DNA of 64,000 bases from Callorhinchus milii (GCF_018977255.1 NW_024704742.1:109494001-109558000); one strand, 5' to 3'; shown: positions 1-50,785, counted from the stretch's first letter. Notes: generated by a model from the letters alone, not told the origin. A program made the numbers and translations.

Positions 1-3000
1 TTGTTGTCGGTTTTTCTCTCATCTCCTGGAGATATTCTTGTAACCTCAAAGCTATTCCTCTGTTTAACATCCTGTCCCTATCATTATGATCTCTTGGTTC
101 TTCCTTCTGTGAATATGGCTCTACTCGACGTCAATTTTAACCTTTACTTGTAATGGTGCTATATTAGATATAAATGTGAATTGAATAATTTGGCAGGAAA
201 AATCTGATTTTTCGTTAATTACTGTGAGGCAAGCTCATTAAAACATTCGTGAAATTTTTTTTTCGCAAATCTTTTCCTTCGGTAGTTATCAAACATACAA
301 CATAGTGATATAAATCGCATTGAAACCCCTTATATCACTTGCATGGGATGTCCTCAGGATAGAATACCTCTTTGTGAAGGATTCAAACAAGTAATTAGGA
401 GTAAGGGTAGTAAGTTGGAACTTTTTACATGTAGGTTAATATACTTGTGTAATAAATCAACAGGAAGGTCCATTGAAGCAGAGAAGATAAATGGATTCAA
501 GAGGGAATATAATGTGTATCTGAACCGTTTAATAGATGGTGAGAAGCCAGGCAACTGCAGTTGTGTACATCAAAAAGGTCCTTGTGGCCCATCCATGCAT
601 CAGAAATTCCTGTTCTTTTTGTTCATCGTTTTCTCACCTCCTCTCCTGGGAGTTCACTGACTCTGACGCAGGCTATGATTCCAGAGGCTCAAAATATTAT
701 CCATTTGACCATTCTTCATGCCCAGCCTGATTATGTTCCCTGTTCTTACACACTCTCTATGCACATGCACCATTTACAAGTGCAAACGAGAACTTTCATT
801 TTTATCGAAACTTTTCACATGTAAATGTCTTAAGAGTGCGTTCATTGTGTAAAATGACTATTTTTGTAGGCAACATGGCAGCGATTCTGTACACAACAGC
901 TTTTGCACAAAGCTATGGTAGGCAGGAAACAATAATTTTAGCATAGGATTTAACTATGATATACTGGGTGGCCTTTCTTTAGCTCAGCCCTATCTTGTTT
1001 CATCAACAACTGACACACCTAAGCAGCTCTTTTTCTATGAAAATGGTTATCTTTAATTTGACATCTCAGTAGTGTTTGACATGATAAGACTGTTATCTAG
1101 GTTTGATGCTGCTGTAAATGTAACTTGAACAGAAAAGGCACATTAGCAGAAAATCTTCAGCACAGTAGTCATGATTGTACCATTAGTACTGTACACATCA
1201 GCTGTCTGCTTCAAAGGAGCATAAATATGATGTGTAGTATTAAAGTTTTGTCTCAATCATAGTATTTTACCTCATTCTGCAGCAAGTAGGACTAAGGCAA
1301 CAGCTCAGAAACCCTTCCGAGCTAATGAGTGTCATTTTACAGCTTGACTGGTGGGAGGTTTGTTACCATGGAGCAAGTCAAATAATGGACTGCTCTTTTT
1401 TACAATTATTTTCTTTGTTGTGAAGGTACCCAATATCCAGCTGTTTAACTCATCACAATAGTAATCTGTGGGTAATCAGGTCTGAGACCAAATTGACCAT
1501 CATTCATAGGACATCGTGGCTGGTCATTCATTCTCAATCAGCTTCAATGGGCCTCTCACAGAGCTGAAAAGATCATGGTCTTTTTTTGCCAAACTGAAGT
1601 ATCAGGTGATCCCAACAATACTGCAATTGTTCTTAATCGTTTTAGAAGATTGCGGCAGCATTTATGCATCACAATTAGAAATATATATATTTTTTAAAAG
1701 ATTAGGGTAAAATATCCAACACACAAATGTATTTCTATCCAAATTTATCCCCAAATTCAAATTCATTGGCTGCTAATCTTTCTTACAGGACCTGTTGGCA
1801 CAGATTAGCTGCTGATTTGCCTGTTTCACTTCCTAATCAATTATACTTCATAAAGCACTTTGCAATGATTATTTATGCAAAAGATACTAAATAGTTATTA
1901 TTAATACATGAGGCTCCACCTCACCCTTTCTGGTTATCCCAGTGATAATAATACTAAATAATAATAATTCTTGCATTTGATATAGCGCCTTATCACATCG
2001 TTGTGACGTCTCAAAGCGCTTCACAGAACATACTGTAAAGTGAATTGACTGTATATGCTGTTTTGCTGGTAGGTTATTTCCATTCCCGTATTGCAATTTA
2101 AACCAACCAAACATTGAATTGCTTTAATATACATTCTTTAAATGTTTCAACTTTCTGAAATATCCCTTCAGGACATTGCAACAGCCAGTTAAAAGTGAAA
2201 GATAGCAGTATTAGGAGTGTGGTTTCTCTATTGAGTCTTAGTTTAAATGTTTACATTTTTGACATACTGCACAGTTAAAAGGATAGTTTTGTTATGATGT
2301 CAACTTTCAAAAGCAGGCTTGAACAGTATATCGTATTAACTGAATGCAGTGCATTGATTCTGTGGTGCACTAAGGCGTGGAGTAGCTGTGGTTAATATAT
2401 TTAAAGCTATAAAAGGAACAAAAGGCTGTCACAATTCCCGACATGATGCATTACTGCTTCAGGAACATTTTCATTGGAGTGCACTGAGCCCCAATCAGAA
2501 AAATCTTCACCGAGGCCTAGACACCTCAGGCCTTTCCTTGCTCGCAGCCAATTGATCCAACACAGCATTGGCTAAGGGATAGAGAGCAGCTTACCTTTCC
2601 ATCCTCTTAGCTGGGGAGTATTGCATGGTGCAGAGAGACATAATGAGGGTAGATATACCCTAAATAATTAACAATATTTTATAATATATATAATAAAAGT
2701 TACATTTTGATTACCCACACTAATAACTTGAATGCCATTTGGCCATGATATTGCAACATTGTTTCAGAGGGTGTGGTTGATACCTGATAGGCATGTGAAA
2801 TTAGATTTTCTCAAATACATCACATCTGTTGGATTACAGAACAGTACCAGGGACTGTCGCTATGTGCTTTGTCTGTCACTATGTGTTTCTCTAGTGTTAG
2901 TAGGTTTTAGCTGTAAGAGGAACAAAAGTCAAGAGTCAGACTCGGTCAGCATAAGGTACGAGATCCTGTTGGCAAGTGTCACAGCTTCAACTAAAAATAA

Positions 3001-3286
3001 CTATATCACGTTTAAAATGCAAATTGTTTCTTAGAGTGGTCTGATATGTGAAGCATTTGACTCCTCGCTCAGCATGGAACGTTGGTACAGGAAAATGTGT
3101 AAGGGCAGGTAAACAGCTGCCCTGCTTGTATACATATTCATGGTAGTTTTTAACACGTTGTTAGAATAATCTGTCTGAATGAGATTGCTCATTTTAAGGT
3201 ACTGCTTGCTACTTAATGTTAAGTCAGTCTTTGTCCTGCTCAAAGAAAATTGATAAAAGACTGACATCCTCTAACATTTTTCACAG

Positions 3287-16325: not shown

Positions 16326-18233
16326 GTTTAATCCGCATAATTCATATCTTCCACAAATTTAAAAACCTGGAACGTATTTCCTGCATTTAAAAAAAAAACT
16401 CAGCTAACATCTTCATCTCCTGAGTCATTTTCACGCCTCTTCTCCAAACTCTTTCCAATGCTTCATCATCGCACTTCTGAACATAGGGTAGTGCGAAATG
16501 ACCACATTAGATCCCAAATGCAACCTCACCAATGATCTCAATGCGTTTGTAACCTCTATGATCTATTAATTTACAGGTAAAGCTTTATAGATTAAATGTA
16601 ATATCAATCAACTTCTTTGACAGCAGCTTCCCTTTGACTGAAAATCTTCAGTGAATCATACTGCCCAAAATTTCTAAATAGTTATTTATTTTAGACACAA
16701 TTTTTTGTTACAAGATTACTTTACCTCCATTTGGTCAAGAAGTTCACATTGCTATACATAATCACATTATTCATCTACCCTAGTGTCATTAAATATATAG
16801 TAAAAACAGCTATAGAATACCACTATCAGCACATTCGGCATTATTTTTCCACCATGGTGTCATTAGTTGAGGTTACACAAGCTTTGTCCTGTTTTCCCTC
16901 GGTTTATATTTGATTATCAAACTATTGTTCAGTTGAAATATTGATTAGCAAAGGTTTAATTTTTTGGTTGAAAGAAATACAGCTGATTTTAATTTCTGCA
17001 TTGATTACCCAAATTAAAACTGGACAAAGCAATCTGAAGACTGCCATAATCTCAGCAATTCTTCACCTTCAACATATAAACTCCTTAGATTCTCCAAATC
17101 ACTTTCCTGAGCATGTTCCAGTTAATGGTATTAATGGCACATCAACCTCAAAAATCATGCACACTTGACCTGGAAACCATAAGGGAGTGTTTAATTTCAA
17201 AGTGGCCTGGAGCAGAGGGAAACGTGAGGCTCACATGAGGATGTCTACTTTAATATTTTTGGTTAAATAGATGCCACTAATAGCAATGTTTAAATGGATT
17301 ATATTCACTCCTAGAGGAAAGTGGGGGGCGGGAAGAGACCTTTTTCCCATGAACACATTTTACCCTTGAAGGAATCAGATGACTGTCCATAGATTTGTCT
17401 GCACTGCACTTTTTGTCTACACTTCATTGTCTGCATTTCACAAGGGGATGGCCTGTTCTCTTAGCAAAAAAAATTCTAGGCAATTGCTCATACACATCAG
17501 TAACTATTTGATATAACATCTTTTATTGGAACCTTTGATGTAAAAATCTCAAGACCAAAGTTAAGTTTCATTGAGAATCAGCTGCAGTTGCACTGCATCT
17601 AGATCTAATAAAAAAATTCTCCATTCTCTACAGTGCAGCTATCTCTCATTCTCTATTATATAATATATAATATATACATACAAATTCAGAACAATTTCAA
17701 AACATTTAACAACAATATTGTGATTGGCTTGTCTTCATTTTTTAAGATTTTACAATTTTGCAAAATAAAGATGAAATTAAATTCACCCTTGTATCAGTAC
17801 TATAAACATACAAACTAGAAGTTTTCCAATGTGGCATGGAGTCTAGAGCAAGAGAAACAAAAGTTAAATATAAATGAAATGGTTTTTAACCATGCTTTTC
17901 ACAAAGCAAATACTGTGCAACTTAAACGTAACACTTCCCACAATAGAAAAAGTATTATGATTTTTTGTCTCTGCTTCCCAATGTCACATTTTCCCAAGCA
18001 TGGATACAGAAACAGTCTTGGATCTTTCCAAATGAATATCTTTTAATTTTGCAAATTTGTAGAAAATATACTAATTGTAACTAAAACATTAAAAGCAATC
18101 CCAAATCCACTTTTAACTTGTACCTTCCAATTCTATTCATGTTAGTCCTTATTCAGAGAATATTTCCACCGTAGATCAAATATTCTTTATCGGTAGTTTT
18201 ACAGTAGCTCAAAATAGTCTTCTTGTTTCAGAA

Positions 18234-18721
18234 TTAAAATTTAACGACCATGGACTCCATATGCAATAACAGGAACTCTGTCTGTGTTCCAAGTACCACA
18301 GAAGTGTTCCTCAGATTATCTAGCACCTGCTGGATATACTTTGGAAGTTCCTCGTAGACTTTAATATCTTCAATATACTGCACCATCAGCTTGCCGGGAA
18401 AGCATTTGGAGAGATTCTCAAACCCATCCTTCCCTGCAAATGAAACTCGATTCAAAGTTGAATTTTCATCATTCAACTCGTGCCAAATTAAAGATAAGTT
18501 ATGATTATCAATGTAGTTCTTCAGAAGTATCGACCACAGATAAGTACTAGGCTCAGTTTGAGGAGGATTAATGTCTGTATTCACATTTCCAAATTTGCTT
18601 TCAGCAGCTTCCACTATTCCAACTTCACTAATAGCAGAGTGATTGTTCTTTAGCTGTGGACAATCAATATGTTCTCGGGGTGTTTTTCCTAGGCGGTCTT
18701 GTTGCTGTGGCAAAACAGATC
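18234..18721 (-). CDS. SLF1: SLF1 terminal coding exon
   Basis: cctacAG acceptor in phase 1. (G)SVLPQQQDRLGKTPREHIDCPQLK...YIEDIKVYEELPKYIQQVLDNL..GTQTEFLLLHMESMVVKF* resembles human GPVLLQQRNAKGELPLDYV...GVHTEALMITLEMM. TAA at 18234-18236. Confidence 0.9.
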
Positions 18722-21700
18722 CTGTAGGAACAATGACATGTATTAATACTTATGGCATTTACACATGAGTGAAAAGAAAACACTGTTTTAGTCACTTCGG
18801 GCTCATTTGTAACCACTTTAGGCAGTAACTAACGCTGACACAATTAACTTGTTATAGTGTATTCTGGCTGCCGAGGGAAAGTGTTTTAAAACTGATTTAG
18901 TCTACAGTAAATACCTAGGTGAATCACCGATCATAACAGTGAGCAAATCAGTGACAGAAAATTCCAGTGCCTGATTTCCCATATTCTATTGCCTTCCTCA
19001 CTTCATTTAATTATTTTTTAAAATTTCTTTTTATTAAGAATAATCAGTAAATAGAGAGCATAGGCAATTAAGGTAATTACCAGGGGTAGGCATTACATTT
19101 TTTTGTTATTTATTTATCAACCATAGTGCAATCTATTAACTGAACAACATTTCATTTCTTATATTGATGCATGTTATGTGTTATTCATACCATGTTACAG
19201 AAAGGATGATAATTGAAACATTGCAAAGTGTTGCAGCATCACAGACAAATGCCACATATAGTATCACAGGTGCAGCAAAAAGTTTTGATCCATGTGTACT
19301 TATGCCAAGGCGTATAACATAAGAAATGATAGATGAAAAAAAGACCAAGGGTCCATCTAGTTCGCCTTCCACCTTCCTGGCGGTCGCATGGACATGTCCT
19401 GAACCACCTATGTACTATATCTCATAATGTTATTTCCTAACCTGTTCCACAGGTTTAAAAACTAAATGCAAGTTTAAAAACTAAACACAGCAAAACCATA
19501 CATGTCTAGTCTAACCATTAGTTTTGTAAAATACAAAATTCTACTTTTATTTTTTCAATTGGTATAGTGTAAATTTGTTGAATAAATCAAGTGATGCATA
19601 ATGGACAATGGGTTTAATATCTACCATCCCAGTGATCAGTAAACTAATGAACTCAGAATTTTCAGGTTACATTATTTAACGAACTAACTTTGAATAGATC
19701 GGGATTGCATGACAAAATAGGTCAGAAAACTCTTCCACAATCTCTGCGAAAGGCAGAGGTTGCATACATCCCTGCTTAGAAATAAGTGAGATCAATTTGG
19801 TCAGCTTTAATCCAACTCCTAGTGGGTATGAATAAAAAGCACAGTGCCAACAAAGATGACCACAAAACAATGGCCTACTGGAATAGTAGAAGCATTCTTA
19901 AATCAGGGTTTGCAATGGAAGTGCAGAGAATGCTTTATCTGGCATCAAACTTCTGAAAATAATCGATGAAAATAGACCTCCAGCAATTTCCCTTTCGGAA
20001 GCATAAATGTTAAGGAAACTTACACATCGCCCATACCAGAAATACTCCCGAATGCACAGCATTACCAACTATTAATGATTTTTCCTTTTTGGACACCTGT
20101 AATCAGCCCTCAGAATGATCTGAAGTGATGCCTCTGATGGAAATGAACAATATTACTTTGAGATGGTGAACCAAACTGAACCCAATCCCCAAACCATTGG
20201 AATGACTTCACAAGTGAGAAACTGAAAAAGACCAATGCATAAAGAATGCAGAAAAAGTTTAACAGAAGTATCTGAGCTGGTAATATTTCAAAACAGTTTA
20301 CAATGTATCTGGGAGGGGGAGATGAATAATAATAATCCATATACTTGGTATAACACCTTTCATGTCCCAAAGTGCTGTAAAGAATATGCTGTAGGGTGTT
20401 GCGACTGTGTGTTTTGTGAATGAACGAGACAGCAAAATTGTGCATAGCAATGTCCCACAAACAGCCAATTCATATTCATATTAAATGACCAATTTTAGTT
20501 GGGGCATTGTTGGGCAGGACATTGGGATAAACTCTTCTCTTTTCTAATAGCGCCATAGGATCTTTAAAGTCCATTTGAACAGGCATATGGGCCTTGGTTT
20601 AATGTATCATCTGAAGGACAGCATCTCCAACAATGCAGCACTCCCCTAGCACTACACTCTAGTGCCAGTTTAGACTATATGAGTTACAAGCCCTGGTGAG
20701 TGCCTAAACCCATAACCTTCTAACTCAGAGGCGAGAATTTGATACATCTTATACAATATTTTATCATGCAGAAGGTAGCAGCCTCTGATAAGCAGAACAC
20801 AGAATAACCAAACTGAAAATCTGAACAAAGTGATCCTGGCTTGACAAGCCAAAACCGAGATTGCGACAAAAATATGACTGTGGATAAGCCTTCACACACA
20901 TTTTACAATTCCCAGCAGATCAAGCGCTTGCAGATCTCTTATCACATGACAATAAATGCCAGCCCTTCCTATTCTTTTCAATGCCCTGGAACATATACAT
21001 GTCAGCAGTCTGCCATTGCCCATTGAGGAACAGGACATGATATGATATTGGCTTTCATATCACCGAGTCCAAATATTGGCTTGGCATGTCAACTGCCTAG
21101 CATCCACATAAATTAGATACTTGTGGGCTTAAACCTCCTCCATGACTAAAGAGTAAATGAACAATACCGGCAACGGGGGATGAGCAAAGGAAATCAGGTT
21201 TGCATCAACAATACTCTAAGTTAAAAAGAACCATTAGGGGGCAGGAGAGAACTTCAGAATTGACAACTTAAAAATCAGGCTTGATGCAACAGTCTCACTA
21301 TATTGAGGTTTTAATAAAGGCCAAGAAATGTGAGAAAAACAAAATAGTGGTAAAATGTTATTCACTTCTAACTTTGTTCAGTAGATCTGCATTTGTATCA
21401 TTTACCAAATATATTTTTCTGTGCCTTATACTGCATTTCAAATAAAGAAAATGTAATGCCTTTATATTCCTTAGCAAAATAGAGTTCATAAAATTATTCA
21501 GAATTATATTCTGGATTCTTGCACCACATCACACAAAACTAAAAAGATTAAATTAACTATTAATCTCTTAAATTAACTACAAATTTGCAGTAAGGAAGTA
21601 AAAGTTTGTAAGATCTCCCTTAAAAGCATCATCTTTCAGCTTACGTTTTACAAATTAACATTCACTATTAAACCTTTGTAGAAATTAGTGTAATAAAGCA

Positions 21701-22759
21701 AATGCTTAATCTAAGGGTTTACCCAGAACAGGGTCAGTATATTTGACACATTTCTATTTACTAGTTTGCCACTTTTTGTGGTGCCTTTTCAAGCTCTTTC
21801 AATTTAAAACAAAAAAACTAGTTTTTTTTAATGTCACCCAGCTCATTTCTCATATTATCCATTTTCAAATTATTTTCAGTTATGTAACACGTTTCACGTT
21901 CCTTTCCATTCAATGTTTGAACTGCATCAAACACACAAAAAATGCGACATGAATGGTTGATCAGTCAGACAACAGCAATCTCCAGCATTTGTTTTCATTT
22001 ATATCAGGAAACAATCAAATTTTGGAACATCCTGTAATTGCCGATTTTGATTGAATTAATCTCAATTAGAGTAATTTCCTGCTGGATTAGTCATCCACCT
22101 GCAATAGTGTTTTTTTTTCAGCTTTAAAGTATTTACAGTCTGAATCGCATTTAAAAAGTAAATTGAAGTAATTTTATTGTTCTTTCCCTTATTTTCATGT
22201 CATAGCCTCATTTTGCAGAAGGTGTGCATGTGCCGTTTCCAAAGGTCTGTCTGCACTTAATCATAAAGAGTACAAAACACGGGACCTAGTTACATTTAGA
22301 CTCCTTTTCCAAGTGCATAGCTTTTATTTTGCACGGTATTCCCTCCCTCCATGGGATGGCAACGTATGGAGTTACATTTCACACTCCGAAGTCTTGAGCA
22401 ATAGAATGCAACTCAACATTTTTAAATATTAGGCAAAGTGCTGATTTTCCTAAGCAAATTGAGGCGACATCTATTAATTGGAACAGAAAATCTTATCTTA
22501 AGAAGCAAATAAATTGTCGACTGTTTTTTGCAAATAAAACAGAATCCTGTTAATAACATGCGTTCATTATAAGGCAGGTTCCCTTACAGCCTGTGATTGG
22601 GGTGTGGACCCTGACACACATCAGAACAAAAAAAAATGCTTGCAGAAAGTCACCACGCTTGCTTCAAATCGCATTATTTTGCTTCAAAATATCAGCCGCC
22701 TTCACTGCACAAAAGAACAAGTCTGGCCCCTGGATTGTTAGGTCTCCAATGTCGCTTCC

Positions 22760-22952
22760 TGTGCAGTGCCGTAGGAAGAGCCGTTGGCGACGATCTGACA
22801 ATCTGGAACTCTGCCATTTTTTAAGCATTGGAAGCCAGCTGGCTTTCTGCAGTAATGTGAAGTGAATGTGGAAGCAACAACCAGTGATTTCACGAATACA
22901 CCCTATGCAGCCATGGTTATGGCTCCATGCAGTGGCGACCAGCCAGTAAGGA
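22760..22952 (-). pseudogene. SLF1: Decayed SLF1 exon for ankyrin repeats 2-3 (pseudo-exon)
   Basis: The AG acceptor (22953-22954) leads into (V)LTGWSPLHGA, then a 1-nt shift. The spliced frame hits TAG at 22903-22905. The shifted frame continues HNHGCIGCIREI (human DNAGWTPLHEACNYGNTVCVQEI). CLKNGRV and RLFLRHC remnants lie in alternating frames. No GT donor at the expected end. Confidence 0.8.
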
Positions 22953-23255
22953 CTACAAGTACATACGACACTATAATATGGGTTTACATTAAAAGTGGTA
23001 AAATTCTTCTAAACCCACAGTTTTAATAATAGGGTGGAGGGGAAATAGAATTTTTCAAAATTGTTCCCCCCAAATAACTGATATGAACTGACTCAACTCA
23101 CATGCCTGCCATAATATTCAATGAATTTATACAGAAAAATGCTATTGGATCTCAAAGTCATTCATCAACAAGGTACACCTATTTGAGGATCCTCCTTTTG
23201 CAATTAAGTTGTAAGTCAATTTATACATATGGGTACAGATTTTCAGGGTGCATAC

Positions 23256-23348
23256 CTTTGAGATTGATGTCAGTATCAGTCACTGATTGAAGTTTGCTGA
23301 CCTTTTCCATTTTATGCTGTACACAGTCATTGTGCAGGTGTATTTCTC
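23256..23348 (-). CDS. SLF1: SLF1 coding exon 15 (divergent first ankyrin repeat)
   Basis: (G)EIHLHNDCVQHKMEKVSKLQSVTDTDINLK resembles human GETALHRACINNQVEKL..GIDINVK. ccAG/GTATG, phase 1-1, open but with an eroded ankyrin consensus. Confidence 0.78.
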
Positions 23349-24912
23349 CTGGCAGTGGGAAGAAAGGAATACATTTCAACAGGCAAGATTTCAAACCAGT
23401 CAAATAAGCAAATCACTGAAGGATTCTTTAATATGCTGGCAATTGGCCAAGATATCCACACTCTAATTTCAAGCCAAGCTGTTTTTTTCTGATGTCAGCA
23501 CATACTAGTTTGTTCCCATCAGTTTCACAGTAACTATCATGTGGTCGAGAGTGACTGCAGTCAAGAAGTTACGCTACGTGGATTTAGTACAATGTTTTCA
23601 AAAGATTTTCTGCAGGAACAAGACTTCAGATAATTCCAGTCACATATCCTCAAACAATCCAAAACAGCTGGCAGTACCAGAGAGAAATGCTCTCTGGTTA
23701 ACATGGTCACCTGATTTCCCAGATTCATTTGTTAATCCAATGCATTTATTAAACAAACGTCTGTATTTCAGAATGCATGTGAAAGTGTGGGTATTAAAGA
23801 ATTTAGTTCGTCAAGCACGAGTGCCGCCAAGCTTGCCAGTATTGTGTTGGAAATTCAGGTCAACTAATAACATGGTTTAGTAATCCACTGTGGGAGTCCT
23901 GACCAGATAAACTCTGCATTAAAGCATGCCACAAACTGAAAGGGGAAAAAGGTCAATGTTAAACAAGAATTGATGAAGATTTATCAGGACTTGTGCAATT
24001 TATGTGCAAGTTAGAACAGATGTCCAATTCTGCTACAGATAAAAAGGAGTCTTTTCAAAGCACATTTAAAAAGGTACAAATTTTGAGAGTCTAATTTTAT
24101 AGCTCAGTAGATATCCTGAATGCAGAAGGAGGAGTTCATGGGCTGTTACCGTGAAGGTGGAAGCAAAGTCTCTACATTAAAGTGAAGTTCTTTGTACGCT
24201 TGGTGGTCATTGGGAAGAGGTGGAGGGGGGGCGGGAAGAGAGAAAGAGAAGAGGAGAAAGAAAGAGGTTAGTACCCAAATGCACAATAACCAGAAAAGTT
24301 CAACCACAATTGTAGTGCAAGTTCAGATTTTTTAATAGTGAATGAAATCATGTACAAGATTAAATTGTCTGTGTATATATGATTTCTTCTTAGGAAGGTG
24401 GCAAAACAACAGAATTGCATTAGTTTTGCATGGTTACATATGCCACAAACAAAAAGTCAATCACTTGATATTCACTGTGCCATTCTTGACAGCCCACATA
24501 TGCATGGATTCAGAGAAAATAGACAAAATATGTAAGCTGCCAAGGGATCTTCTGACAGATAATATAGAGAGGGTAACTGTTGGGAGTTTAATAACAATAT
24601 TTTACTTCAAAAGTTTCTAAGAATCACTTTCACAAGTTGAATGAACCAGGATTAAGCACAATATTTGACTCACACTTTGTTTTGCTATCAAATATTGTAC
24701 ATTTTCATTATACACAAGGACCAATTTTTGCAGTGCAAATTCTAACATTACAGATTATCGATATTCTGCTTTTTAATACTTGGTAAGTAGCAATATGATT
24801 TTATTGTAGTTTATTATGTATTAAAACTATAATTTTTTTAGGGAAGGGTGATCAACACCCATTTCTAATATTCAGTTAGACATAGAGGAGTCCTGTATGT
24901 GTATGTAGACAT

Positions 24913-25243
24913 GTGGAGTCCTGTAGCTCAGTGGTTAGAACACTCGCTTTGCAAGCGAGAGACCTGTGTTCAATTCCAGGCAGAGGGCGAAACCTTGGGC
25001 AAGTTTCCTTACTCCACACAGAGCCTAATAATAATCCCTCCAAAACCAAAAACAATAATAAATTGGTCATTTTCAATCTACAACTGTTTGTGGGACATTG
25101 CTGTGCGCAATTGGCTGCCGCGTTCGCCCACAAATATACAGTCAATTCACTTTACAGTGTGTTCTGTGAAGCGCTTTGGGACGTCCTCCCGACGTGAAAA
25201 GTGCTATATCAAATGCAAGGATTATTATTATTATTATTATTAT
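24913..25243 (+). mobile_element. Full-length tRNA-Ala-derived SINE, young subfamily
   Basis: A-box TAGCTCAGTGG, TGC anticodon stem-loop, B-box-like GTTCAATTCC, Deu-type body (ttgctgtgcgcaattggctgccgcg), L2-like tail and (ATT)n end. Confidence 0.9.
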
Positions 25244-26154
25244 AGAGGCATTTGAAAGTGAGGATGAGAATCTCGAATTCAACCTGCTGCGGAATAGGGA
25301 GCTGGCAGAGCTGAGTGAGGATTATGGAGTCTGATGCAGAAGATGGTACAGGCTATAGATCTGGTCAGTCTGCAATTTATGTAGGGAAGCCTGGGGAGGG
25401 AATCAAGTAATGGACCCTGGAGGCTGGTGATGAAGGTATGACTGAGGGTGTCAGCAGCTCAGATTCATATTGAAATCATTGGAATTCAGAAGTAATTTTT
25501 TTAAACTTTTTTTAGTCCAGATCAAAAATCTCTCCAAAAAATCTTTTAAAATCAATATTGTTATTCAGTGACCCAAAGTGCTGCATAAATTTATCATCTA
25601 GCAAACACCTCAGCGGAAATTGACCCTTTAATAATTCCAAATATGTTGATTCTGGAATGGTTGGGTCTATCACGTCCTTCATTAGTTCTTTATCCTGAAA
25701 AGATCTTAAAAAAGTATTCGCCAAAACTTTTTGATACTGTGCATAATCACATGGTTTCCTCTAATACTTTCCCGGCAACATCCACCTTCAGGTTTATAAA
25801 GATTGCCATTTCAAACATGAATTAGGGATGGCAGATAATCTTCAATACAAGGATAGTGCCTTGAGCAAGTTCCTTCTCAATGTGATAGACACCATTCAGA
25901 TAGTCAGTTACTTTGTGGGCTACCGTTTGTTTTGTTTGGTTTCAGAGGAGCTCCTTGAACCTCTATGAGTAAATATTATATTTAACCAATTTACAGACTT
26001 AATAATCTTATAATAATCCTTGCATTTTGTATAGCGTCTTTCACATTGAGAGGACGTCTCAAATCACAGGATTACTGCCAACTGTAGTGACCATGTATTT
26101 TATAGACTTATCTGTTTAAAAATCTGAGGAACTGGAAGGAAAGAAGATTCTGAG

Positions 26155-26585
26155 ATAATAATAATATTCCTTGCATTTGATATAGCATCTAATCTCGTCT
26201 TCGGACATCTCAAAGCACTTCACAGAATATAATGTAAAGTGAATTGACTGCATATTTTGTGGGCGAAATGCGGTAGCCAATTGGGCACAGCAGTGTCCCA
26301 CAAACAGTCATAGATTGAGTGACCAAATTACAATACAAAATTACATTTGCAAAGGGCCTTTCACATCGGGAGGACGTCTCAAGGTGCTGAAATTATTATT
26401 ATTTTTTTTTGTAGGGATTATTATCCCCAGAAAAGTGATCGACTAACAACTGGGTTCCTACTTACTGCTAAACAGAGGCATGTGGATGAAGGAAAGTTGC
26501 CCGACGTTTCGCCCTGCCCGGGAATCAAACCCAGATCCTCTCGCTTGCGAGGCGAGTGCCTAACTACTAAGCTACAGGACTCCAC
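26155..26585 (-). mobile_element. tRNA-Ala SINE, longer/older subfamily, with a nested L2 3' tail
   Basis: Head gtggagtcctgtagc with CGC anticodon loop. Extra block gcctctgttt..agcagtaagtagg. L2 tail inserted at 26331-26389 between aaatta repeats. Confidence 0.85.
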
Positions 26586-28612
26586 AGAGATGCCTTTTCT
26601 ATCAGAGTATATTCAGTTTAAGAGTTTTAATCCTTATCTAAAGTGAAATAGGAAAGGATTTCAACAAGGATTCCCTTCAGTTACATCATTAAAGTATAAG
26701 ATTTAAACCTAGAATAGAGTTCATGTCAGAAATGAACTTTACACTCAGCTATTTCATAACATTAAGGAGCCATCTGAAAAGAAAGGTCAACCAAACACCC
26801 AGGAGAAAGCAATAAATTCAGAATTGGACCAAATAATAGAGTAGTAGAAACTGCATCAAATAATCTATCGAGTTAAGTATATTATTGATAGAATTTGGGC
26901 AAAGGAAGTATCATTCAATTTTTTATATTCAGACCAGAGTCTAATTTATATAGAAACATGGCACAGAGCTCATGGTTTCAGATTATGTCCATAAGACACT
27001 GAAGTGTCACATAAATTTACATCATCATGTGAACTCCGATTAAGTCATAAGCTTTATTACTTGCTTCTAATCACCAATAATTTTAAATGTTAGAATTTAG
27101 TGAACTTGTGAAATCAAAATATTGCTACGCTACTAATGTTAAAAACAACAAGATTACATTTGTATAGCGCCTTTCATGTCGGGAGGACGTCCCAATGTTA
27201 AATCGGTTTGTTAATTCTTACATTCATTTTTATTTGGGCTGTGAAGAGAGGCATAATCAAACTGGAAGTAGATGGTGACAAATGCACAGTATTTAATGCT
27301 TGGTTTATAATGCTGGCGATGATGTCCCACAATTTTTTTTAAAACAGTAGAAATATTTGGAGCAGAGAACTGATTTAGATTTCTCAGTCTCAACTACACT
27401 TACAGCCTAAAGAGTTGATTGGCTGTACAATCACCTTCAAAATACAGTCAATCCATTTTACAATGTATACTATGAAGCGCTTTGAGACATCTTAACGACC
27501 TGATAAGGTGCTATATCAAATGCAAGAATTATTATAAGAACATTAAAAATGCACTTTTAAAATTTCTTAGTTGTCCATTGGGCCAAATTGAAAGCAAATA
27601 TTATTTATATTTGACCACGGACATAGAAAACATTGATCCATATATTTTTATTTAAAGCAGAATTTTTGCCATTTGTGACACTGAATTGGTTAATTAAAAC
27701 TTATTTGAAATGAAATGCACCTAATTCAACCAAGACATTAATTTATAATTATTAAATCCAAATGTCTTGCTCATATCTCATTTGTGTGTTAATTCTTTGG
27801 ATTTTCCAATGCACAAAATCCAGGAGCATTGCTGAATTTACCGAAATGCAATACAATTTCTGTTTCAGTGACAATCCAAACTTAAAACAGGTCTCTTGAA
27901 AGCTATTTCTAATGCTGAAGCTGACCAGTTAGCAGAAAGGCACCATATCAAATTAAGTACAGAAAGCACAGAAATTAAGTACAGCCAGTGGTAAATGAAT
28001 TCTGATTTGAGAATCATACTGCTATATATTTACTATTTTCAACATTGTGCTTAGAAATCATATATTTTGGTAAAGAGAGGCATTCAGCCTATCGAGCCAT
28101 TTCATGCTAGTTCTCCACTATGGCTCTCAATTGTAATCCCATTTCCTTGCTCTTCCTTTTATATATTTAATCTTCATGCATTAATCTAATTGCCTTTTGG
28201 ATGTCATAACTGACTTAACTTCAATAGCCGCGTGTAATAATTTGCTCCACATCCAATAATTTAACATTTGCACTATTCAGACTTTCATTGAACTCATAGT
28301 AAAAGTCAGTGCACACTAATATCAAATTACCAGGTCAACTGTAATACGTTGTAAAAGATTAGTGAAAGTTCATTCTTCAGACAAGTATTACTGCCACGTG
28401 CATTTGCTGAAAAGCAACTTCTTCGTTTTTGGTCAATTGCAGTTAAGTGCAAGAAAATGCATTGTTTCTTGTGGAATAAACTCTTACGGAATAAAAGTAC
28501 ATGGTGGTAAAGAACATTTAGAGTAAACTACACACAAAACTATAGGAACAATATTGAATCAAAACTAGTACTGCTTAAGCCCCACTTGTAATCAAATAAA
28601 TTAAGCCTTTAC

Positions 28613-28719
28613 CTTTCAAATTTACTTTACACACATCTGTTTGGCTATATTGAATATCATTTGTGCTGTCGGATTCCAGAAAAGAATACTTCTTGGTTAC
28701 TAATGGGCAATTCTGTTTC
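28613..28719 (-). CDS. SLF1: SLF1 coding exon 14 (pre-ankyrin)
   Basis: KQNCPLVTKKYSFLESDSTNDIQYSQTDVCKVNLK(G) resembles human KENCPSVVKK..KTNLKG. Phase 2 to 1. Confidence 0.88.
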
Positions 28720-28756
28720 CTATGGATAAAAAGCAGAAACATTATCTCTCAGTGAT

Positions 28757-29160
28757 AACAACAACAACTTGGATTTATATAGCACCCTCCATGACGGACG
28801 GTGTCTCAGAGCGCTTCACAGTAATGGATCCCGGGACCGAGCCAGGGGGAGGGGAAGGAAGGTGACTGACGGCACGGTCGAAAAGAAAGGTCTTCAGCAG
28901 AGACCTGAAAATAAGAAGGGAGGGAGCGAGGCGAAGGGAGTGAGGAAGGCAGTTCCAGAGCCTCGGGGCATAGTGGCTGAAGGCACAGCTGCCGAGGGTG
29001 GAGTGGAGGACTCGGGGGACGAGGAGGAGGCCAGACCCGGAGGAACGAAGGCAACGGGTACTGTTTTGAGGAGAGAGGTCAGAGAGGTAGGAGGGTGCAG
29101 AGGATTGCAGGGACTTGAATACAAGGGTGAGGATCTTGAAATCGATCCTCTCTGGGATGA
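28757..29160 (-). mobile_element. L2 3' fragment
   Basis: IPERIDFKILTLVFKSL..AFSHYAPRLWN..LKTFLF with a (TTG)n tail. Near-identical to the 54147-54638 copy. Confidence 0.88.
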
Positions 29161-34838: not shown

Positions 34839-35160
34839 GTGGAGTCCTGTAGCTCAGTGGTTAGAGCACTCGCTTTGCAAGCGAGAGACCTGAGTTCAAT
34901 TCCAGGCAGGGCGAAACCTTGGGCAAGTTTCCTTACTCCACACAGAGCCTAATAATAATCACTCCAAAACCAAAAACAATAAATAAATTGGTCATTTTCA
35001 ATCTACGACTGTTTGTGGGACATTGCTGTGCGCAATTGGCTGCCGCGTTCGCCCACAAATATACAGTCAATTCACTTTACAGTGTGTTCTGTGAAGCGCT
35101 TTGGGATGTCCTCCCGACGTGAAAAGCGCTATATCAAATGCAAGGATTATTATTATTATT
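34839..35160 (+). mobile_element. Full-length tRNA-Ala-derived SINE, young subfamily
   Basis: Near-identical to the copies at 24913 and 50460. Lies about 57 nt from the SLF1 coding exon 11 acceptor. Confidence 0.9.
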
Positions 35161-36063
35161 ATATAGATAAATATATAGTGATTATTGATGGATAAGGTTC
35201 AAATTCAAAAACTAATAATGCCAAAGATCCATACCTGTCTCATCAGATTTATGTAATTAACACAATGCCTTCCCTAACTCAGTCTCCACCTATACCCACA
35301 AAGTTTTCAATCTACCGTTATACCGAAGATGAGAAAACCTTGTGTTATTGAATAATATTTCATAATTGCTTTTGATGAAGCATGTTAAGCATCTCAAAAT
35401 CCTTCATACAAATGAATTATTTAAGTATAAGGATAAAAAAATAAACTGCATTCCATATCCCACCTTATTACATGAAAATCTCTCAAAATCTTTCACATGC
35501 TTTGAAGTGAAGTGAATGACGCAGGTAAATAAAGTAACCAATTTGCACCAGTAACAACTCACAAGCAACAATGTTTCACAAGAAAGAATATTTATCATAA
35601 GTTTGAATGGGGGTATAAGAGAGAAAAAAATATAGGTCAGGATGCTTCTGATAACTTTGTTTGTCTTGGTATTGCACGATGGAAGCTGTAAATGCTCACT
35701 GAACTATTGTAGCGCAGTTCAATGTCTCATTCAAGATCTTGGCTATAATTTGTTGGTGCAAATTGCAATTTTTTTTACATTTCTAATCAACTTGCAAACT
35801 TACAATGATCATCCAGATTTTATTTGAATATAATGAAATAATGAACTGATAAGTGTTGGTAGCACTCTCGCTTCTGGATTAGAAAGTTGTAGGTACAAGC
35901 TCCATATCAGAACCCTAACCTCATACTCCAGGCTGGCACTCCAGTCCAGTTTTGGGGGAAGACCTGTATGACAGAGGTGACATCTCTCAGATGTGATGTT
36001 ACACTTTCATCTGCCGATTCAGATGGATGATAAAGACCCCATGAAACTATTGTTTTTTGTCAT

Positions 36064-36221
36064 GTTCCACATGTGGAAACCCATCATCGTGTTCCACATG
36101 TGGAAACCCATCATCGTGTTCCACATGTGGAAACCCATCATCGTGTTCCACATGTGGAAACCCATCATCGTGTTCCACACGTGGAAACCCATCATCGTGT
36201 TCCACATGTGGAAACCCATCA
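36064..36221. repeat. 27-bp minisatellite, about 5.9 copies
   Basis: Unit gttccacatgtggaaacccatcatcgt; one copy has a single t>c change. Confidence 0.97.
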
Positions 36222-50459: not shown

Positions 50460-50785
50460 GTGGAGTCCTGTAGCTCAGTGGTTAGAGCACTCGCATTGCA
50501 AGCGAGACACCTGAGTTCAACTCCAGGCAGAGGGCGAAACCTTGGGCAAGTTTCCTTACTCCACACAGAGCCTAATAATAATCCCTCCAAAACCAAAAAC
50601 AATAATAAAATTGGTCATTTTCAATCTACGACTGTTTGTGGGACATTGCTGTGCGCAATTGGCTGTCGCGTTCGCCCACAAATATACAGTCAATTCACTT
50701 TACAGTATATTCTGTGAAGCGCTTTGGGACGTCCTCCCGACATGAAAAGCGCTATATCAAATGCAAGGATTATTATTATTATTAT
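50460..50785 (+). mobile_element. Full-length tRNA-Ala-derived SINE, young subfamily
   Basis: Same head, body and (ATT)n tail as the 24913 and 34839 copies. Confidence 0.9.

Follow-up and report, generated by a model that had tools for sequence, protein, structure and literature searches.

The present analysis indicates that the single-copy SLF1 gene of the elephant shark (Callorhinchus milii) carries an ankyrin 2-3 exon that died in place, that splicing bypasses its remnant, and that the reading of H4K20me0 has probably been lost with it, an explanation to which we assign a probability of approximately 0.88. The exon is a decayed pseudo-exon bypassed by splicing, as established by its syntenic homology, its disabling lesions and its being skipped in spliced contigs. 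It carries at least two frame-shifting indels and a premature TAG, and its old end has no 5' splice site. Since the exon is symmetric (phase 1 in, phase 1 out), exon 15 joins the last exon directly and the reading frame survives. The resulting 897-aa protein keeps the RAD18-binding tandem BRCT, both SLF2-binding Nse5-like halves, a lone first ankyrin repeat (ANK1) and a remnant of the fourth (ANK4). RAD18-SLF1-SLF2-SMC5/6 would then reach damage without an SLF1-borne mark of newly replicated chromatin. A full-text literature search found no published account of a cartilaginous-fish SLF1 lacking the ankyrin repeat domain (ARD).

The SLF1 gene model, the ankyrin 2-3 relic and its splicing

The window, i.e. 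the whole stretch of 64 kb that was analysed, is part of contig C1 (109,494,001-109,558,000) of the Callorhinchus milii genome (991.5 Mb in 1762 contigs). The features of interest are the following:

48607 to 18234, minus strand: SLF1 (ANKRD32) coding region, 16 coding exons, 897 aa
48607-48494, 45935-45857, 45300-45057 and 44422-44260, minus strand: coding exons 1-4, tandem BRCT domain, aa 1-200
28719-28613, minus strand: coding exon 14, linker preceding the ankyrin region
23348-23256, minus strand: coding exon 15, 93 nt, phase 1 at both ends, retained first ankyrin repeat ANK1 (GEIHLHNDC...DINLK)
22954-22774, minus strand: relic of the ankyrin 2-3 exon, acceptor AG at 22954-22953, homologous part 22947-22774
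22905-22903, minus strand: in-frame TAG, 16 codons past the acceptor of the relic
18721-18234, minus strand: last coding exon, starting in phase 1, stop codon 18236-18234

In the model rebuilt from the window, all coding exons are bordered by AG acceptors and GT donors. On the minus strand, 18719-18237 translates into a peptide that matches the C-terminus of XP_007891259.1 (“ankyrin repeat domain-containing protein 32”, 897 aa) with 100% identity, and the entire rebuilt protein of 897 aa differs from this entry by a single mismatch, H296R. Codon 296, in coding exon 6 (41531-41460), encodes Arg in the window and His in XP_007891259.1, presumably because of a polymorphism or because the assemblies differ. 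The 897-aa ARD-less model is thus the existing RefSeq annotation, as are the ARD-less models of sharks and rays. The SLF1 model of the sawshark Pristiophorus japonicus (940 aa), which has the highest identity of any full-length relative (69% over 826 columns), was used for genome-wide searches. Twelve of its 13 matches fall within C1:109.51-109.54 Mb, i.e. within the window, and the thirteenth is a weak BRCT hit on contig C2; SLF1 is therefore a single locus. The initial annotation had proposed that the exons on either side of the lost one are in phase 1 and that skipping yields a protein of about 897 aa; exons 23348-23256 and 18721-18234 do start in phase 1, and the model has exactly 897 aa.

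The window also contains four tRNA-like heads (Rfam tRNA, 31-53 bits) at 24921-24983 (+), 26510-26580 (-), 34843-34914 (+) and 50468-50530 (+). Each is followed by similar sequence, and these elements are tRNA-derived SINE copies located in the introns of SLF1 and upstream of it. In all runs compared, the bins containing them have word depths between 10^4 and 10^6, which points to a very abundant family, present in the RNA-like runs as well. The intron that separates coding exons 10 and 11 contains a 27-nt tandem repeat (36063-36221, 5.9 copies, 98% match).

With regard to the relic, reading on from the last base of exon 15 past the AG at 22954-22953 gives VLTGWSPLHGAITMAA, followed by the TAG at 22905-22903. 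The homology resumes in a second frame as HNHGCIGCIREI and returns to the first frame as CLKNGRVPDCQIVANG. When the ankyrin 2-3 exon of snake SLF1 was aligned with 23010-22700 by a frameshift-tolerant method, the alignment spanned 22947-22774 with 22 of 61 residues identical and needed two frame changes, near 22919 and 22831. Its score of 71 compares with 26.6 +/- 4.0 (maximum 42) over 100 shuffles (z about 11). The axolotl query scored 62 by the same method, against 25.9 +/- 4.2 for shuffles. The score of the sawshark query (47) merely equalled its best shuffle (47), so that only the tetrapod queries are clearly significant, and plain tblastn of sawshark SLF1 against the window did not detect the relic at E < 1. 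An HMM built from 37 distinct ankyrin 2-3 peptides was scanned against 3838 six-frame pieces of the entire 64 kb, and the two frames of the relic were the top two hits (E 0.4 and 0.6). The positions corresponding to human D838 and E847 are occupied by V and G, respectively, and no GT donor is found between 22790 and 22719, i.e. at or after the homologous exon end.

These observations confirm what had been claimed for the relic beforehand: the AG acceptor, the start of GWSPLHGA type, the frameshift and the TAG at 22903-22905 are all in the sequence, the GT donor is missing, and the D-to-V and E-to-G replacements in the ankyrin motif are present. The claimed continuation of homology in other frames holds in that the alignment passes into a second frame and back, but the peptide RLFLRHC, which had been counted as part of it, lies outside the best alignment.

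One DNA-like run (X1) and three RNA-like runs (X5 and X6, and X7 from another study) were compared with 17900-28800, all as assembled contigs. The kind of runs X5-X7 is a guess; they were treated as RNA on the grounds that their contigs show splicing at GT-AG borders and that no retrocopy exists in the genome. In contig record 16 of X6 (3145 nt), the segments 28612-28719, 23255-23347 and 18720-17900 are adjacent, at record positions 2101-2208, 2209-2301 and 2302-3122. The same three pieces are found at 683-790, 590-682 and 1-589 of contig record 23 of X7 (936 nt). Contig record 10 of X5 (2836 nt) carries 18122-18720 at 1-599 and 28612-28719 at 693-800, and the gap between them is exactly 93 positions, the length of exon 15. 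The one-base offsets of these pieces from the exon borders arise because each intron and the exon following it both start with G. Spliced contigs from three runs and two studies therefore link 28613 to 23348 and 23256 to 18721 and bypass the relic (in X5, by spacing), as had been predicted for the 23256-to-18721 junction. The contig word depth of the bin containing the relic (22632-22995) was 0.3 in X5, 0.58 in X6 and 0 in X7, values that were not counted as evidence. Low-level inclusion of the relic or a tissue-specific isoform is possible, as contigs drop rare forms; if included in an mRNA, the relic would be expected to end the frame at the TAG, 16 codons in. Two variants were seen in the RNA-like runs: X6 and X7 share a synonymous change, 18393 G>A (Gly845), and X6 also has 18170 C>T, past the stop codon.

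Remaining domains and alternative explanations

TONSL, BARD1 and SLF1 share an ARD type with four repeats, an acidic pocket and a Trp (PMC11551741). The reported H4 contacts of human SLF1 are E808, D838, W842, E847, N850, D874 and D881; K20me0 is held by D838, E808 and E847, and W842 stacks on H18 (PMC11551741). We mapped these residues by counting along the 8pef chain in the alignment, which reproduced the human numbering of PMC11551741. D838, W842, E847, N850, D874 and D881 (at least five of the seven contacts) map to the missing exon, and the equivalent of E808 is encoded in exon 15 (GEIHLH). Elephant shark SLF1 lacks the residue set of an H4K20me0-reading ARD (the K20 channel, W842, N850, D874 and D881), and, judging from these residues, it most likely cannot read H4K20me0. 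It also lacks a four-repeat ankyrin domain, making it an orthologue by descent without the usual ARD.

The Pfam profile of XP_007891259.1 agrees with this assignment. Three BRCT families (TopBP1/SLF1 BRCT, RTT107_BRCT_5 and BRCT) together cover residues 10-204, with PF23294 at 9.2e-27 (residues 123-204), PF16770 at 1.1e-06 and PF00533 at 4e-06 (residues 10-89). No ankyrin Pfam family is found in this protein even at E <= 1, whereas sawshark SLF1 matches five of them (residues 727-798). The phosphate-binding residues of BRCT1 in human SLF1 are T13 and K56 (PMC11551741). Among 35 orthologues, T13 is nearly invariant and S55-E56-K57 is invariant, K57 of the elephant shark being human K56 with a one-residue offset in the alignment to the structure; the putative phosphate-binding site is likely retained. 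The sawshark orthologue matches PDB 8ir2 (SLF1 BRCT) at E 8e-69. Both halves of the Nse5-like helical domain are kept by homology, residues 301-660 matching coelacanth at 1.5e-96 and the C-terminal part at 1.9e-12.

What is left of the ankyrin region consists of two pieces. Exon 15 (ANK1) is 51.6% identical to the sawshark ANK1 exon (E 2.4e-07), with 16 of 32 residues identical in the per-exon comparison, and shares 14 of 32 residues with macaque. Residues 736-770 (window 18721-18615) comprise the ANK3 tail and the ANK4 cap (G-x-V-L-x-Q-Q-Q-D-x-L-G-K-T-P...), which are kept in all ARD-less cartilaginous SLF1. The Leu of the ANK4 TPL motif is Arg in Callorhinchus and Heterodontus and Leu in most other sharks.

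These two pieces could fold together into a small module that binds chromatin or serves another role, in which case the reader would have been remodelled rather than lost. We consider this unlikely, but it is the least well excluded of the rival explanations. The exon deletion takes out very nearly two complete repeats and leaves their register undisturbed; ANK1 retains the E808 equivalent, is 44% identical to macaque, which is above many core exons, and is included in the spliced contigs, though elasmobranchs have dropped it. Nevertheless, the contacts that are gone include the H18-stacking Trp and two of the three acids holding K20, the Pfam ankyrin repeat is undetectable at the threshold given above, ANK1 is less conserved than in the sawshark, as the comparison of the two shows, and the Leu of the ANK4 TPL(D/H) motif has been replaced by Arg.

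An ARD-bearing SLF1 could also persist as a minor or tissue-specific isoform with an unrecognised exon, or as a paralogue elsewhere, for which we see only a slim chance. The transcript evidence comprises contigs of just three RNA-like runs, and a genome of 1762 contigs is possibly incomplete, but the searches for such a copy all gave the same answer. No intact SLF1-type ankyrin exon was found in the window by the six-frame HMM scan, which returned just the broken relic, nor in the 991-Mb genome by the searches described here; the initial annotation had likewise reported no intact GWTPLHEA copy nearby. The sawshark ARD (127 aa), used as a genome-wide query, has its best match in the last exon of SLF1 (58% over 38 residues), and the remaining matches are generic ankyrin repeats of 30-43% identity. 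The sawshark SLF1 query, as noted, found the SLF1 locus and one weak BRCT hit. A degenerate GW[TS]PLHEA pattern has six exact sites in the genome and matches the relic itself with one mismatch; in all six, the sequence that follows departs from SLF1.

Some of these loci deserve a brief description. An intact exon at C1365:2535-2557 reads ...DYCGWTPLHEACNHGHLG, and one at C2:120839087-120839109 reads ...DNAGWTPLHEACNHGHIG, both of TONSL/BARD1 type. The GWTPLHEACNHG exons of this type, at C1365:2535 and C2:120839087, end at another exon border than SLF1. Searched against the PDB, the short exon peptides of both loci mainly retrieved designed ankyrin proteins; among natural proteins, TONSL gave the best single match. 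An insect TONSL query matched only generic ankyrin regions in the elephant shark genome.

A similarly slim chance is given to the explanation that the entire SLF1 gene is becoming a pseudogene in the elephant shark lineage, the ankyrin loss being the first visible lesion. A functional domain has been lost, and the terminal branch of Callorhinchus is long (0.30, compared with a shark median of 0.07). Against this, the 897-aa frame is uninterrupted over 16 exons with canonical splice sites, full-length spliced contigs occur in three runs, T13 and K57 have been conserved along with many residues of the core, identity to sharks in the structured exons amounts to 62-86%, and the ARD-less frame is open in 19 named cartilaginous species.

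The initial annotation had asked whether an assembly indel could have created the lesions. Two contigs of the DNA-like run X1, 22524-22931 and 22905-24154, span the relic with 0 differences and 0 gaps, and the indel table for X1 lists none between 22700 and 23000; this check used assembled contigs. X1, which is possibly not fully independent of the source of the assembly, carries C>A at 25290 and G>C at 28203 relative to the window in all depth and is thus not simply the assembled haplotype; a further variant, 23223 A>G, is present in part of the depth. An assembly or annotation artefact, with an exon that is in reality intact and with sequencing errors as the source of the frame shifts and the stop, is the least probable explanation and very unlikely, because the X1 contigs reproduce the relic without an indel and X1 differs elsewhere: although these two contigs meet in a short overlap (22905-22931), with contig ends inside the relic, and contigs lose rare variants, three spliced contigs, drawn from two studies, skip the relic, the older RefSeq model, which derives from another assembly, also has 897 aa and differs only by H296R, and the absent donor and the substituted key residues would not be explained by errors at one or two sites.

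Distribution of the ankyrin domain in cartilaginous fishes and other animals

The set of chondrichthyan SLF1 sequences comprised 61 entries, from 20 named species and from transcript-length Logan ORFs clustering with skates. The site of the ARD is spanned by 47 of them, the other 14 being truncated isoforms or fragments. Apart from the sawshark, all elasmobranch sequences spanning the site (45/45) lack ANK1-3. The number of residues between the flanking anchors is 166 in the sawshark, 111 in Callorhinchus and 62-74 in the 45 elasmobranch sequences, which is too few for ANK1-3. BLAST with the sawshark exons against the 61 sequences detected the ankyrin 2-3 exon in no sequence other than that of the sawshark; the ANK1 exon was detected there and in Callorhinchus, but nowhere else. 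Eleven of the 45 ARD-less sequences are ORFs of at least 856 aa from Logan contigs of 3-5 kb that clustered with skate SLF1, and these are transcript-derived. The loss had been described for the elephant shark lineage, a scope that proves too narrow in view of these 45 sequences.

The elasmobranch proteins (e.g. Heterodontus XP_067885816.1, Carcharodon XP_041043010.1 and Amblyraja XP_032873181.1) are ARD-less and keep the BRCT pair and the helical core. Their junction runs straight into G-A-V-L-L-Q-Q-(Q)-D, the start of the last exon. Unlike Callorhinchus, they also lack the ANK1 exon; the evidence on them consists of protein models and transcript ORFs.

Among 172 proteins with an SLF1 core, 59 lack the ankyrin 2-3 exon, all of them chondrichthyan, and the 113 with the exon consist of 112 tetrapod sequences and the sawshark. 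ARD-bearing SLF1 is found in hagfish, lampreys (GWTPLHDA), gar, sturgeon, paddlefish, bowfin, four teleosts, coelacanth and several invertebrates; limpet SLF1 also bears an ankyrin domain. The wider survey searched 1.84 billion cluster representatives, and names were looked up for 20. As the ARD is present in hagfish, lampreys, bony fishes, tetrapods and invertebrates, the domain is ancestral and its absence is derived. A few short or partial bony-fish SLF1 models have no match to the ankyrin 2-3 profile, namely those of Sardina pilchardus (650/657 aa), Oryzias melastigma (645), Electrophorus voltai (829), Nothobranchius rachovii (509) and Polypterus senegalus (697). These may be truncated models or further losses; several end before the position of the ARD, and none of them was counted as a loss.

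The sawshark occupies a particular place in this distribution. Unlike the Callorhinchus gene, its SLF1 has an open ANK1-3 (ARD residues 688-780). When the ARD columns were left out of the tree, Callorhinchus branched as the sister of the elasmobranchs, with the sawshark placed inside the sharks (support 98). An intact ARD in the sawshark means either several independent losses or a more complicated history. Provided that the sawshark model is genuine and that no lineage regained the domain, it must have been lost three or four times. Its ARD is also unusual. It is the only ARD-bearing SLF1 of the 113 without GW[ST]PLHEA, having SWTLLDDA instead, and it carries Gly and Val at the positions of D874 and D881 and Asp at that of E847. 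These sequence features hint at a relaxation of constraint before the exons were dropped.

On this basis, the cartilaginous fishes as a class could have dispensed with SLF1 as a reader of H4K20me0. The ARD would have come under relaxed constraint early (even the sawshark, which keeps it, has lost two acidic H4 contacts and the GWTPLHEA motif), and the symmetric exons would then have been lost three or four times independently, in chimaeras, rays, galeomorph sharks and cow sharks. We put forward this scenario tentatively, at slightly less than even odds.

Implications and comparison with known systems

If this scenario is true, recruitment by RAD18-SLF1-SLF2-SMC5/6 has been uncoupled from a post-replicative histone mark for hundreds of millions of years, and the cartilaginous fishes constitute a natural separation-of-function experiment on the purpose of the SLF1 ARD. 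Whether or not this scenario holds, the elephant shark retains and expresses SLF1 although the core of the domain is gone, as it is in nearly all cartilaginous fishes sampled, and the reader function is accordingly not indispensable to SLF1 in vertebrates. The chimaera relic, the clean absence in sharks and rays and the altered open domain of the sawshark together form a natural series of delta-ARD alleles, and the question of what, if anything, replaces S-phase targeting of SMC5/6 in cartilaginous fishes becomes testable. A caution also follows for annotation, in that the name “ankyrin repeat domain-containing protein 32” and the H4K20me0 annotation are not transferable to ARD-less orthologues.

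The ankyrin domain of SLF1 has been termed highly conserved and, in human cells, directs RAD18-SLF1 specifically to newly replicated chromatin (PMC11260465, PMC11551741). Once deprived of the ARD, human SLF1 is reported to localise less to EdU-labelled chromatin, to be less efficient in H4K20me0 pulldown and to leave RAD18 foci unsupported (PMC11260465). The “rewired SMC5/6 recruitment” suggested in the initial annotation is an extrapolation from these human delta-ARD experiments (PMC11260465). By analogy with them, elephant shark SLF1 probably continues to link RAD18 with SLF2-SMC5/6 but no longer reads the mark of new chromatin. The human ARD (726-935) is described as an insert within an otherwise Nse5-like solenoid, and human SLF1(410-1058) minus the ARD still binds SLF2 (PMC9708086), which explains why its in-frame excision is tolerated.

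With human SLF1 (PDB 8pef for the ARD, 8ir2 for the tandem BRCT), the elephant shark gene shares its status as a single-locus orthologue, the tandem BRCT, the helical core and the exon phases around the ARD; it differs in that its mRNA has no ankyrin repeats 2-3. Elephant shark SLF1 is a naturally occurring equivalent of the delta-ARD mutants made in the laboratory, in which the formation of S-phase foci fails (PMC11260465). TONSL and BARD1, the other readers of H4K20me0, are different genes, and the ancestral SLF1 exon bore the same DxxGWTPLHEACNHG signature. SIMC1 and yeast Nse5, Nse5-like partners of SLF2/Nse6 that have no ARD, resemble it in that no working ARD breaks up their Nse5-like solenoid (for the ARD of SLF1 as an insert, see PMC9708086). 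Unlike these two, elephant shark SLF1 retains the BRCT pair and, at the old insertion point, a stub consisting of ANK1 and ANK4.
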